64,000 nt of DNA, taken from NCBI GenBank assembly GCA_965116875.1, contig OZ220733.1:4096001-4160000 (forward strand), in the 5' to 3' direction. How positions within the stretch are numbered: the stretch's first letter is position 1; each line of letters begins with the position of its first letter. Made by a program: the position numbers and the translations under genes. This document shows, one piece after another, positions 54,596 through 59,149 of the stretch. The notes beneath the pieces are model-generated. The model was given only the letters and a program-made list of their open reading frames with translations, was not told the origin of the DNA and searched no databases. Source of the stretch: Candidatus Latescibacterota bacterium (GTDB taxonomy: Bacteria > Latescibacterota > UBA2968 > GCA-2709665).

Positions 54596-54939
54596 GAGTG
54601 GATTATCCGTTCTTGCCGAGACCATCAGGATTGTCCTGTTTCACTTTGACGGAGACTTCACTGGCGGTGACCGCTGTCCGCCTCTCTGAAGAGGCGACCG
54701 GTCTTTCGGATTTCCCGCGGCTGGATGCTGAAGGCGTAGCGCGCAGCGATTGGCGCCTTCGGCTGTGTGGCGATTTTCATGTCGGACGATGTCTCACGGT
54801 CGGGCTGGCTATTCGACGCTTGAGTATCCGGTTCGGTTTCTGAAAACCGGCTTCATCTGATCGAATTAAACACCTGATTATCAATTATATAGCCCGTTGG
54901 GACAGAAAACAGTCCAAGCGCGGCGTCCAGGCAGCATAA

Positions 54940-54971
54940 GAAAAAACACGCCGGTAGCAGCGTGTTTTTTC
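54940..54971. terminator. Bidirectional intrinsic terminator closing the redoxin operon
   Basis: GAAAAAACACGC-CGGTAGCA-GCGTGTTTTTTC. Confidence 0.8.
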
Positions 54972-54995
54972 TGTTCCGATTTACCCTGCCTGAAC

Positions 54996-55973
54996 TTATG
55001 GCACGCTCTTGCCGAAGTTCTTGGCGAATTCAAGAAAATCCGTGAAGTCGACCAGGCCGTTTCCATCCAGGTCGAAGGTCGGGTTGTCGGTGCTGAAGGC
55101 CTGGGCGAAGGCGACGAAGTCGCTGAATCCGATTTGTCCGTCATGGTCGAAGTCGGCCCGGGGATTGAGGGGTACAACGATGACCGCTCCGGAAACAGCG
55201 AGCGTGATGCTTCTGTTTTCCGGATCGTCGCTCAGGATTGTCAGGTTGCCGGAGAAGGGTCCGGATTCCGCCGGAGTGAATGTGATCGCCACTCTCGCGC
55301 TGTCTCCTGCCGCGACCGTTACCTCGGTCGTGTTAATAGAGATTTCCTCGAGATCGGATTGAATGTTGCTGATCGTGAGCGATTCTCCTCCGGTATTGTA
55401 CACGACCAGGGTGAGCGTTTTGGATACTCCGGCTGAAACGTCCTCGCCAAAGTCGAGTGAAGGTTTCGAAAGATCGATCGCCGGCGGCGGAACGCTCAGC
55501 AGTTCCCGGATACGCGCGGCCGTTGCGGTGATTGACGCAGGTTTTCGTATCCCGATGTGACGGATAATGCCCTTGCGGTCCACGACAAGCGTATGGTCAA
55601 CGCCGAGAGTTCTCGGAAACGCGCGGCCGGCCCGGAGGAGAAGCGGGAACGTGACACCGGTGACTCTTTGAAAGTCCCGCAGTTCCGATTTGCTGCCATT
55701 GTAGACGTCGAGTCCCAGAACCGTCAGGCTGTCATCCTGGAACGCCCTCCAAATCTGTCTTTCTATAGACGGACCCGTCTGTCTGCACAGGTCTCAGTTA
55801 TGGCCCAGGTAGTAGAGCACGAAGACGCGCCCCATGTAATCTGCGGGCGTGTAGGTCTTGTCATCCAACCCCGTGAGCGAGAAGGTCGGTACTGTGTCGC
55901 CGACCTTCTGAGCCCGTGCAGACGCAGGCGCGAAGAGTCCCAGAATCACTGCGGCAATCAAGGGTCGGTACAT
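54996..55973 (-). CDS. Secreted putative selenoprotein B: redoxin (UDLC) + Ig-like domain + dockerin/EF-hand-like tail, 325 aa; TGA at 55796-55794 (codon 60)
   Basis: RBS gaaagagg; signal peptide MYRPLIAAVILGLFAPASARA-Q; VGDTVPTFSLTGLDDK...VLYYLGHN-TGA-DLC; frame open on both sides of the TGA. Confidence 0.85.
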
Positions 55974-56027
55974 GGGATACCTCTTTCAGGAAGGGAAAGT
56001 CCTGCGGGTGTATACGCCCGGGGAAAC

Positions 56028-57011
56028 TCATGGCACGCTCTTGCCGAAGTTCTTGGCGAATTCGAGGAAGTCCGGGAAGTCGACTACGCCGTTCCCATTC
56101 AGGTCGAAGGTCGGGTTGTCGGTGCTGAAGGCCTGGGCGAAGGCGACGAAGTCGCTGAATCCGATTTGTCCGTCATTGTCGAAGTCCGCCCGGGGATTGA
56201 CCGGGACTACGATGGCGGTTCCGGAAATCGCGACGGTAACGGTGCCCTTCTCCGGGTCGTCGCTGGAAATGGTAATCGTCCCGGAAAACGGACCGCCCTC
56301 CGTGGGCGTAAAGGTGATGTCGACGGTAGCGCTGTCGCCCGGTGCGACCGTAAGTTCCGTCATGCTGAACGTGACGCCCTCCAGGTCGGACTCCAGGTTC
56401 GTAATGCTGAGGTCCTCCCCTCCCGTATTCTTCACGACGAGGGTTACGGTCCTGGTTTCGCCGGCCGGAACGTCCTGGCCGAAGTCGAGCGAAGTACCTG
56501 GAACATCGATTGCCGGCGGCTGAACGGTCAGCAATTCCCGGACGCTCGCCGCCGCTGCGCTGAGACCGGAAGCGCCGCGCCCGATGTGACGGACAATCCC
56601 TTCGCGGTCCGCGACCAGCAGAGTGTGGGTCCCGTGAGATCCCCTGATATTGCCTGCCTGAAGCAGGAGGGGAAACGAGATCGTGGACACGGACTGAAAA
56701 TTCCTGAGCTGAGCCTGACTGCCATTGTAGATGTCAAGTCCCAGGACCGCAAAGCCGTCATCATCCTGGAACGCCTTCCAGATCTGTTGTTCTATGGACG
56801 GACCCGCCGCCCGGCAGGTCGGTCAGTTATGGCCCAGGTAGTAAAGAGCCAGAACACTTCCCTCATAATTCGCGGAGGCATAGGTTTTGCCGTCCAGCCC
56901 CGTAAGCGAAAACGTTGGTACCGCGTCACCGACGTTCTGGGCTTCCGCGGGCCCGCCCGGGCAAAACCCCAGGACCAGCAGGAACACGACGCAGGCAGCG
57001 ATTCGACCCAT
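56028..57011 (-). CDS. Secreted putative selenoprotein A: redoxin (UPTC) + Ig-like domain + dockerin/EF-hand-like tail, 327 aa; TGA at 56825-56823 (codon 63)
   Basis: RBS aaaggagg; signal peptide ending AEA-Q; VGDAVPTFSLTGLDGK...ALYYLGHN-TGA-PTC; ORFs 56823-57011 and 56028-56690 share a frame with no other stop. Confidence 0.85.
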
Positions 57012-57045
57012 TGCAATCCTCCTTTGAGATGGTGTGTGGTCTGCG

Positions 57046-58629
57046 TCAGAAATAGGTCTTCAGACGCATTTCAAGGCCATTGAACGGCAACACGAGATAG
57101 CATGTCCCGGATGTGCACGCGGCGCCGCCTCGCCTGCGGCCGGCGAATACGAAGGCTTCGTATCGATCGAGAAAGGCGACGTTCAGGTTGACCGACAGCC
57201 AGGAACGAGCCCCGGTCTCGACCCGGTCCGGCGTTGCGCCGTCATCCACTTCGAATGGATCGTTGGTGCGATCCAGTATGACTGCGGCGCCCACACCCGA
57301 GGGATGCTGGAAGGAAAACTGGGTAAAGACGTCCTGGAACACCGGCTGGTTTCGGGGCTGCCTGGCCGCGCGCCGGACCTGCAGATCGAAACCCAGGACA
57401 GACCCTCCGGGTGTAATGGATTCGACCCCCACACCGCCGATCCGGTGCATTCCGATTCCCTTCAGTTCGTCTTTTCCCCAATCAAAAAAGACGGTAGACG
57501 TCAAGCTGTGCCCGCCGGGCTGCCGAGGCAGTTCAACGTCCACGCCCAGATACCGCTCGTTGAACGTCGTTGAAAAGCCGGGCGCCAGTTCGTTCTCTCC
57601 CTTGCTGACGTTTGCCGTCAGCGTGCCCAGTCCGAAAATCGAATACGTTGCTTCCACCTGGTAGCCCGTTTCAGCATCGGCAATCAGGGCATGCGTGGAC
57701 CGGTTGAGCAGGACGGCCGCGTGTTCGCGGACCAGGGACGGGGGATCGTTGAAGCTGTAGGCGAATTTCTCATAGTCCTTGTATTCCAGGCTCAATCCCA
57801 GATTGGAAATGCCGGCGTTGGCCGAAAGATACAGAGCGCTGCCGTCCACGTGCGCGTCAATCAGCCCGGCGTATTCGGCGTAGACGGTCGCATAGCCGTC
57901 CGGAAAGCCCGATGCTTCAATTGCGGGCGTGACGTCGAATTCCAGAAAACCCGACCACGTTCGCGTGGAGTCAATCCTGGCGGCGTGATGGCTTACGGCC
58001 GTGACGCCGGCCTTGATCCGGCTCGTCGGTCGCAGCGAGACTTCCCCTCCGAGAAGCCAGTTTTCACGCCGTGGTACGTCCCGCAGAGGATCACCCACCC
58101 GCACCGCCGGCGGGATGTCGCTTAATACTGGACGGCCGATCAGGGCTTTTGCCTCGGCCCGGGGACCCGCCCAGGTGGCCATGCCGCCCTCGAGGTCTCG
58201 GGACGGCGAATAGCGGCGCCGGTATTGTCCGCTCTCCAGAACGACGCCAGGCAGATCGAAGGCCCTGAGCGTGATGCCGCGACCCAGGATGGCGTAGTAG
58301 TTGCCCGCAACCAGCTCGACCGGTCCCTGCGACCAGCGCAGGTGCTTCTGGGAAACATGCACGACCTGGTATTCAACCTGCGACAGCGGCGAGCCGGGAG
58401 CGGTGTTGCGCCATGCATTGAAAATCTCTGCCCGTAGTCCGGCCTGAAGACCGTGCCGCGTGTAATCGACGTCGAACTGCTCATAAAGTGACGAAACCGC
58501 CAGCGAGTCCGAGCCCGGGACGCGTCCCCGCTGGATTTCGGTCAGGCTGGATACGGTCACCTGCGCGACGACAGGCTTCGACGTCGCCAGCAGAAGGAGC
58601 ATTATCAGGCTATTGGTCAGCGCTCGCAT
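57046..58629 (-). CDS. Outer-membrane beta-barrel-like protein with C-terminal CxxGxC (DUF6029-like)
   Basis: Signal peptide ending VVA-Q; AGNYYAILGRGITLR, LEYKDY, PPSLVREH, GGAACTSGTC, terminal LEMRLKTYF. Confidence 0.75.
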   Translation of the reverse strand: MRALTNSLIMLLLLATSKPVVAQVTVSSLTEIQRGRVPGSDSLAVSSLYEQFDVDYTRHGLQAGLRAEIFNAWRNTAPGSPLSQVEYQVVHVSQKHLRWSQGPVELVAGNYYAILGRGITLRAFDLPGVVLESGQYRRRYSPSRDLEGGMATWAGPRAEAKALIGRPVLSDIPPAVRVGDPLRDVPRRENWLLGGEVSLRPTSRIKAGVTAVSHHAARIDSTRTWSGFLEFDVTPAIEASGFPDGYATVYAEYAGLIDAHVDGSALYLSANAGISNLGLSLEYKDYEKFAYSFNDPPSLVREHAAVLLNRSTHALIADAETGYQVEATYSIFGLGTLTANVSKGENELAPGFSTTFNERYLGVDVELPRQPGGHSLTSTVFFDWGKDELKGIGMHRIGGVGVESITPGGSVLGFDLQVRRAARQPRNQPVFQDVFTQFSFQHPSGVGAAVILDRTNDPFEVDDGATPDRVETGARSWLSVNLNVAFLDRYEAFVFAGRRRGGAACTSGTCYLVLPFNGLEMRLKTYF

Positions 58630-59149
58630 CGGCGTTCGCCCCGTCGTCGGCGCCGGGTTCGGGAAACAGCGCCTCGACTGCCGTCAGCAACACTTGGGCG
58701 TTTTTCGAATGATATCCGACCTGCCGCAGCGCAATCTCTCCGTCCGGGGTGATCAGGAGCGTCGTCGGCAGGACGTTCACCTGCATTCGCCGCATGACCG
58801 CGCTGTCAGAGTCGAGGACGATCGGGAAGTTGACCTTTCTCGCCCGCAGAAAGGGTTTCACACGGTTCTGCCCACGCGGCCCGTCCACGTTTACGCCAAG
58901 TACGGTAAGCCCTGATTTGCCGTACTTCTCGTGAATCTTCTGGAGCTTGGGCATCGCCTTGACGCAAGGCTTGCAGTAGGTCGCCCAGAAATCCAGAAGT
59001 ACCGGACCCTTTGTCAGCAGGTTTTTGAGGTTGACGCGTTCGCCCTGCAGGTCCCGGAGGTTGAAGTCGGGGGCCGAGGCGGCGTTCAGCGTCGCTGCGC
59101 CCAGGGAAATTGAGGCGGCGATGGTCAGGGTATGAACGATCGTCTTCAT
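58610..59149 (-). CDS. TlpA/ResA-family exported thiol-disulfide oxidoreductase
   Basis: Signal peptide; APDFNLRDLQG, LDFWATYCKPC, cis-Pro loop VLPTT. Confidence 0.92.
   Translation of the reverse strand: MKTIVHTLTIAASISLGAATLNAASAPDFNLRDLQGERVNLKNLLTKGPVLLDFWATYCKPCVKAMPKLQKIHEKYGKSGLTVLGVNVDGPRGQNRVKPFLRARKVNFPIVLDSDSAVMRRMQVNVLPTTLLITPDGEIALRQVGYHSKNAQVLLTAVEALFPEPGADDGANADASADQ

Follow-up and report, generated by a model that had tools for sequence, protein, structure and literature searches.

Gene B lies on the minus strand of the window, the stretch of 64,000 nucleotides from a Candidatus Latescibacterota bacterium that was analysed here as a whole, and follows its paralog, gene A, in tandem on the same strand, with 54 bases between the two (Table 1). 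Translation of 54996-55973 gives a frame in which a TGA at codon 60, the proposed selenocysteine (Sec, U) codon, is the sole in-frame stop and no frameshift occurs; the initial annotation had described the gene as free of any other lesion, and this description holds, as do all its other details that could be verified. In the mechanical list of open reading frames (ORFs) the gene appears split into a 59-amino-acid ORF (55794..55973) and a 195-amino-acid ORF (54996..55583). The two proteins share 65% identity over 318 residues in a BLASTP alignment, which places the two TGA codons opposite each other, as had been claimed from the sequence at the outset, and which also bears out the earlier statement that the signal peptides and the dipeptide xx between U and C of the active-site motif (DL in B, PT in A) differ between the copies. 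Downstream of B, folding of 54930-54998 gives -29.3 kcal/mol (z -4.93, 0 of 200 shuffles as good); the terminator found there is missing from the list of the consensus terminator scan and is visible by direct folding. No ribosome-binding site was seen for an internal start after the TGA, for which no systematic search was made.

Table 1. Features of genes B and A and of the genes upstream of them (positions are those of the window)
Feature	Position	Strand	Remarks
Gene B	54996..55973	minus	325 codons + TAA stop, one in-frame TGA (translation)
Ribosome-binding site of B	55980..55985	minus	AAGAGG, 6 nt 5' of the ATG; read from sequence
Signal peptide of B	55908..55973	minus	about residues 1-22, ...APASARA/Q; read by eye from sequence
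TlpA/ResA-like thioredoxin-fold (redoxin) domain of B	55548..55907	minus	residues about 23-142, across the TGA; Pfam, PDB sequence search, Foldseek
Proposed Sec60 TGA of B	55794..55796	minus	first residue of U-D-L-C redox motif; context VLYYLGHN-U-DLC
Competing hairpin of B	55772..55793	minus	GACCUGU/ACGGGUC, 8-nt loop, directly after UGA; minimum-energy fold of the stretch
Candidate SECIS core of B	55767..55780	minus	AGACG-GGUC-CGUCU, 5-bp stem, GGUC tetraloop at nt 22-25 from U of UGA, 18 nt spacing
Ig-like domain of B (choice-of-anchor D / DUF1573 / HYDIN-like)	55182..55484	minus	residues about 164-264; Pfam, NCBIfam, Foldseek
Dockerin/EF-hand-like calcium-binding repeat pair of B	54999..55160	minus	residues about 272-325; Pfam EF-hand_1, NCBIfam
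Intrinsic terminator-like hairpin, then U run	54939..54972	minus	3' of the B stop; direct fold
Paralog A	56028..57011	minus	327 codons + TGA stop, U-P-T-C motif
Sec63 TGA of A	56823-56825	minus	context ALYYLGHN-U-PTC
Local hairpin of A	56796-56812	minus	-9.3 kcal/mol
DUF6029 protein gene	57046..58629	minus	upstream of A, same direction; N-terminal signal-like sequence
Cys-type TlpA-like thioredoxin gene (WATYCKPC)	58610..59149	minus	first gene of apparent operon; overlaps DUF6029 gene by 20 nt

The redoxin domain of B extends across the TGA at its active site: Pfam AhpC-TSA (PF00578) matches residues 24-140 with 46.8 bits (cut-off 26), and Redoxin (PF08534) reaches 33.0 bits (cut-off 26.6). 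Further along the protein, Pfam gives a HYDIN/VesB-like Ig match of 47.7 bits (cut-off 25.5), the Ig-like HYDIN/DUF1573/ASH matches spanning residues 164-262, as well as EF-hand_1 at the C-terminus (27.7 bits, cut-off 25.4), and NCBIfam adds a choice-of-anchor D match; with the NCBIfam model dockerin_GC (NF041540, cut-off 29) B scores 26.7, just below, and A 29.8, just above. An AlphaFold model of B, built on a 22-sequence alignment, has a mean pLDDT of 88.4, with low values in the N-terminal helix 3-13, and in it U60 directly precedes helix 61-75. The best solved matches found by Foldseek are 2ls5 (a Bacteroides protein), ResA and DsbE, with TM (target) of 0.79-0.85, and the middle part of B matches the HYDIN PapD-like domain 2e6j with TM (target) of 0.81. 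The PDB sequence search puts 2ls5_A first at 6.4e-12 and ResA entries next, and in the sequence alignment the TGA of B faces the first Cys of CGVC in 2ls5.

B has 108 matches in its own genome. A, B and four weak redoxin matches aside, these are confined to the Ig-like and/or C-terminal part. Most of them span only about residues 255-325 and end open frames of a few hundred to 3000 amino acids, and the recurrence of the tail at the ends of so many frames marks the dockerin/EF-hand-like segment as a common C-terminal module of the secreted proteins of this organism. At G000:C1:2031628-2032149 lies a weak redoxin-domain match to residues 23-196 (25% identity) that contains both a TGA and a TAG, one of each; it may represent a more divergent third member of the family, or a defective one.

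Conservation of the TGA was followed at two depths. When 61 related genomes were searched in six frames, three further members of the genus proved to have a B ortholog (85-87% identity), which in every case contains one TGA and immediately follows an A ortholog; an A-type copy with one TGA is present in 15 of the 15 genus genomes and B in four of them. From 60 fetched loci in which the active-site motif was located, 73 raw matches (72 distinct) were obtained, and 67 homologs were kept once five spurious off-frame rows had been dropped and an alignment score of at least 150 applied. The aligned codon is TGA in 63 of these 67 and Cys in the remaining four (CPVC twice, CAPC twice), and since every one of the 63 homologs with a TGA has it at this very codon, its presence is not due to chance. 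Further afield, the homologs from other phyla are TlpA-like proteins of the ordinary kind, with WCxxC where B has the TGA. With the redoxin domain alone as query (E at most 1e-10), 105 of 168 genomes of the phylum gave a match, and among the 150 matches listed (there were 19 further ones) 143 contain a TGA, one of them also a TAG, six contain no stop and one a TAA; these phylum counts record a TGA anywhere within the match, its exact position having been checked in the 60 fetched loci. Every A-type copy has PT as its xx dipeptide; the four B copies have DL or NL at this place, and the rest of the family varies widely. That the different dipeptides tune the redox potential, as the initial annotation suggested, is a conjecture.

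Two tandem arrays in relatives contain both forms of the active site: L050 (in G020) mixes UTIC, CPVC and USVC, and L054 (in G018) has CPVC and UIVC. The Cys form in L050 retains a hairpin, with the loop GGCC instead of GGUC. Judged from their sequences, these mixed arrays look like natural switches from Sec to Cys.

Selection was estimated from codon alignments by Nei-Gojobori counting of nonsynonymous (dN) and synonymous (dS) changes. Between A and B the 263 codons downstream of the TGA give a dN of 0.225, a dS of 0.825 and a dN/dS of 0.27, a ratio whose weight is reduced, to the disadvantage of our interpretation, by a dS (0.83) near saturation; the ortholog figures are firmer for this reason. 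Among the four B orthologs the six pairs give a dN/dS of 0.20-0.26 over the 265 codons downstream of the TGA, 0.09-0.29 for the downstream redoxin part and 0.17-0.28 over 303 codons, and the 38 codons upstream of the TGA give 0.08 between A and B. Purifying selection downstream of the TGA, which had been proposed as a check on the gene before these analyses, is thus found both between the paralogs and among the B orthologs.

A maximum-likelihood tree built from 28 members of the family unites the four B copies in one clade (support 100/99) and places all 15 A copies of the genus beside it as the sister group (support of A 93/90; A and B together 98/99). The A copies of the B-bearing genomes are nested deep in the A clade and the stem branch of B measures 0.28; B is either as old as the genus and frequently lost, or younger and fast in its divergence. 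The last 60 or so codons, which encode the dockerin-like tail (54999-55180 in B, 56031-56210 in A), are 91-96% identical in nucleotides between the two genes of this genome, with a third-position identity of 0.83-0.93, compared with 0.3-0.5 in the middle of the genes. This suggests gene conversion between the tandem copies at their 3' ends, or a very recent exchange.

The genome, which consists of one contig of 5.45 Mb, has the genes required for the decoding of UGA as selenocysteine. The tRNA-Sec gene reaches 73.4 bits (cut-off 47) and is also called by ARAGORN as tRNA-SeC with anticodon TCA, and directly beside it lie selB (373.5 bits, cut-off 242) and selA (549.3 bits, cut-off 268). selD (366.3 bits, above the curated cut-off; G000:C1:1070717-1071640, L020) has an in-frame TGA of its own in the context CG-U-AAK, and an fdhA-like gene (G000:C1:4662841-4663614, L149) has one in the context CSRA-U-HAP; from their sequences both would be further selenoprotein genes of this genome. 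TGA has not been globally reassigned, because gene A ends in an ordinary TGA stop.

In the fdhF-type selenocysteine insertion sequence (SECIS) of Escherichia coli, some 18 nt separate the UGA from the GGUC apical loop. The candidate hairpin of B resembles this type in its GGUC tetraloop, with G in the first two loop positions, in its 18-nt spacing and in a stem of at least 4 bp, and is unlike it in that the stem has just 5 bp, the energy is above -7.5 kcal/mol and a stronger hairpin overlaps it. Of 57 distinct Sec-form sequences, 45 have GGUC at nt 22-25, and in 48-54 the four flanking pairs form. Across a 58-sequence alignment 81.3% of the cells pair, compared with 39-54% after displacement of the partner by 1-3 columns, and the covariation score of the stem is 0.24, compared with at most 0.13 for the displaced partner; neither the observed pairing share nor the covariation score was reached in any of 500 shuffles. 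Pair 19-28 is seen as G-U, G-C and A-U, and pair 18-29 as G-C and C-G. The Gly codon that forms the loop is GGT in 48 of the 51 Gly codons at that position and in none of the four Cys forms, GGT making up 18.5% of the 1367 Gly codons in the 33 long ORFs of the window. In the comparison of A with B, third-position identity is likewise raised near the UGA, at 0.73-0.77 between codons -8 and +37 relative to it, most other windows of the alignment having 0.3-0.5.

The strongest support for a SECIS comes from the matching loop and spacing in the two other putative selenoprotein genes of the same genome: in selD the sequence UCAGUCC-GGUC-GGACUGA follows the UGA, with the loop at nt 21-24, and the fdhA-like gene has a GGUCU loop at nt 22-26. 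According to the part of PMC13188914 available, a bacterial SECIS (bSECIS) has an apical loop of 3-9 nt with G in its first two positions, an upper stem of 4-16 bp, a distance of 16-37 nt from the UGA and a minimum free energy of -7.5 kcal/mol or lower. The hairpin of A fits all of these rules at -9.3 kcal/mol; that of B, with a 4-nt GGUC loop, a 5-bp stem and 18-nt spacing, fits in these three respects, and its energy lies above the limit. Taken on its sequence features, the GGUC hairpin is likely to be the site recognised by SelB.

A number of results weigh against this assignment. The GGUC hairpin of B is weak, with -5.3 kcal/mol on its own (z -0.94, 33 of 200 shuffles folding as well) and -7.2 kcal/mol when a lower stem is included, short of the -7.5 kcal/mol given in the available text of PMC13188914, and with the four pairs forced this value is reached in only 36 of 58 sequences. 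In unconstrained folds the loop falls exactly at nt 22-25 in 16 of the 58, and RNAalifold, given the 48 nt that follow the UGA in 58 distinct sequences, found no consensus pair. Only five cells have both partners of a pair changed, a number reached by 10 of 500 shuffles, the sequences compared are related to each other, and the stem lies within conserved G-P-S codons. The minimum-energy hairpin of both genes, GACCUGCC/GGCGGGUC in A, overlaps the 5' arm of the GGUC hairpin. No Rfam family matched anywhere in the window at gathering scores. Finally, the genome was scanned for sites at which a TGA has 40 open codons on each side and a GGUC hairpin at nt 21-22; eight were found, compared with three to eight at five control offsets, which means that the GGUC-hairpin descriptor alone is not specific. 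Only selD, A and B look coding among these eight, the other five looking non-coding, and the scan passed over the fdhA-like site on account of its GGUCU loop.

Two other hairpins were considered as SECIS elements and rejected. The minimum-energy hairpin, set aside as the main candidate, has a loop that starts 7-10 nt after the UGA (7 nt in B, too near for the 16-37 nt stated in the available part of PMC13188914), and it is not conserved outside the genus, where the GGUC loop is kept. A second hairpin some 45 nt after the UGA (CUGGAAGGCGUUCCAG) is conserved within the genus only and lies too far from the UGA for the published model. This second hairpin is found at 55737-55752 in B and at about 56766-56781 in A, there as CUGGAAGGCGUUCCAG with the loop GGCG, and the plus-strand image of the A copy is listed by the terminator scan.

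A search with the B protein in a collection of 5.8 billion proteins returned 43 proteins, all of which are either fragments of 194-241 amino acids that start after the TGA, the window's own 195-amino-acid piece among them, or longer Ig-dockerin proteins. PF00578 and PF08534 are absent from the precomputed domains of all 43 matches, whose names include 'DUF1573 domain-containing protein' and 'choice-of-anchor D domain-containing protein'. B is thus cut off at the TGA in every public entry found, and seemingly so is the whole family; correct annotation would restore the redox domain to many proteins now named 'DUF1573' or 'choice-of-anchor D' and would add the phylum to the users of selenocysteine.

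Taken together, we consider it very probable that B is an intact selenoprotein gene in which UGA-60 is decoded as selenocysteine, belonging to the known UxxC Prx-like/TlpA-like class. The initial annotation had argued for selected recoding rather than decay, and the dN/dS values, the Sec machinery, the Cys found at this site in relatives and the SECIS-like hairpin all point the same way. B is under selection, its most likely function, as far as sequence can indicate, being that of an extracytoplasmic Sec-based thiol-disulfide reductase. UGA-60 in the mRNA would be read as selenocysteine by SelB with Sec-tRNA(Sec), SelB most likely being recruited by the small GGUC-tetraloop hairpin downstream, and the product would be exported by means of its signal peptide. 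Its dockerin/EF-hand-like calcium-binding tail would probably hold it on the cell envelope or surface, with the Ig-like part as a spacer. U60-D-L-C63 would take the place of CxxC, with Sec60 as the attacking nucleophile that forms a selenenylsulfide with Cys63, and the activity would be that of a thiol-disulfide (or sulfenate/peroxide) reductase outside the cytoplasm. B would have arisen by tandem duplication of A, the older and more widespread copy, and would have been kept by purifying selection with a different xx.

Were the UGA a real stop, the locus would yield a 59-residue peptide and/or a separate Ig-dockerin protein translated from an internal start. The database proteins, all C-terminal pieces or Ig-dockerin proteins, agree with this, as do the stand-alone Ig-dockerin genes that exist beside redoxin genes in relatives, and the weakness of the B hairpin makes some termination at the UGA plausible. 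Such a stop would, however, halve the thioredoxin fold at its very active site, the frame is kept across the TGA in 63 homologs and the position is Cys in four, and constraint is seen on both sides of the codon (0.08 over the 38 codons upstream in the comparison of A with B, 0.09-0.29 for the downstream redoxin part among the B orthologs); we consider a real stop very unlikely. The UGA might also be read through as an ordinary residue, Cys or Trp, by a near-cognate or mischarged tRNA. That the aligned residue in relatives is Cys speaks for this, as does the marginal nature of the SECIS-like hairpin in B, and Cys is known to be inserted at Sec codons when selenium is scarce. We nevertheless hold ordinary read-through to be very unlikely: the Sec system is complete and its selD is itself a putative selenoprotein gene, the GGUC loop and its spacing are common to selD and the fdhA-like gene, the loop codon is GGT in 48 of 51 Gly codons of the TGA forms and in 0 of 4 Cys forms, and the persistence of TGA across the phylum is hard to explain if Cys were intended.

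Decay of B into a pseudogene copy of A, inactivated by a nonsense mutation, would agree with the presence of B in only four of 15 genus genomes and with its long stem branch (0.28), and is nonetheless scarcely credible. The same TGA is found in the functional-looking A and in the whole family, which marks it as ancestral rather than as a fresh lesion; none of the four genomes shows a further stop or a frameshift in B, whose dN/dS over 303 codons is 0.17-0.28, and B has a ribosome-binding site and a terminator of its own.

As a selenoprotein, B can be placed beside several known groups. The accessible parts of PMC13188914 and PMC9312934 list Prx-like thiol:disulfide oxidoreductase selenoproteins (PF00578, UxxC/UxxU) together with the related 'Redoxin family protein' (PF08534, UxxC) and 'thiol-disulfide isomerase-like' (cd02966, UxxC) families. 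B is likened to these three by their table descriptions, and a member of its family may be among their accessions: it shares with them the Pfam domains, UxxC in place of CxxC and the existence of Cys homologs, and like them is predicted only, and it differs from what those descriptions give in its signal peptide, in the fusion to an Ig-like domain and a dockerin/EF-hand-like tail, and in its arrangement as a tandem Sec/Sec pair. With ResA/TlpA/DsbE (CcmG) and 2ls5 it has in common the thioredoxin fold, the TlpA-type insertion and the position of the motif at the start of helix 1; ResA/TlpA/DsbE (CcmG) are extracytoplasmic, as B is predicted to be, and B is unlike them in having Sec in place of the first Cys. 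B is not the equivalent of ResA, because with the NCBIfam ResA model (NF002854) it scores 37.8 bits, far under the cut-off of 170. Typical peroxiredoxins have their peroxidatic Cys or Sec in the motif PxxxTxxC/U. B is not one of these, since it has Gly and not Thr at -3 (L-G-H-N-U) and its motif is UxxC and not TxxU, the motif listed for peroxiredoxin-type selenoproteins in the part of PMC13188914 that was available. The novelty of B lies in its lineage and in the fusion of its domains. Protein kind, recoding mechanism and SECIS type are known already, and a specialist would hardly be surprised by these three.

A and B share an apparent operon with the CKPC thioredoxin gene and the DUF6029 gene (57046-59149), which suggests a shared redox function in the envelope. 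The CKPC gene is likewise upstream in two public relatives (L095 and L096), and tilS and ftsH lie downstream of B. No cytochrome c maturation genes were seen in the annotated neighbourhood of B, and neither CcdA nor DsbD was noticed among the annotated neighbours, a genome-wide search for these two not having been made.

More speculatively, A and B might belong to a phylum-wide, expanded and unannotated family of extracytoplasmic selenoenzymes composed of a TlpA-like Sec head, Ig-like spacers and a dockerin-like surface anchor, in which Sec/Sec and Sec/Cys tandems with differing xx would provide graded redox potentials for extracellular disulfides or oxidants; we regard this wider picture as tentative and rather doubtful. 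Were it true, the lineage would spend its selenium mainly on surface redox reactions and its selenoproteome would be largely invisible in databases. A duplicated Sec/Sec pair that differs in xx, together with the Sec-to-Cys switches in sister genomes, would be useful for separating the contributions of Sec and of xx.

The lineage is little studied and uncultured, its public records being titled as Gemmatimonadota or Latescibacterota metagenome-assembled genomes. A full-text literature search found papers that mention both selenoproteins and Latescibacteria, with no link between them in the one examined, and none that mentions both selenocysteine and Latescibacterota; the combination of selenoprotein and dockerin returned only papers with unrelated titles. 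Four sequencing runs were examined, among which X5 is the single RNA library; it has no contig on B, which is uninformative for this gene, and one contig of 198 nt that is identical to 56774-56971 and spans the TGA of A, for which DNA carry-over is possible. Among the runs X2-X5, of which the best match may be the source sample itself, those labelled sponge metagenome and coral reef metagenome contain DNA contigs at least 99% identical to parts of 54900-57100.

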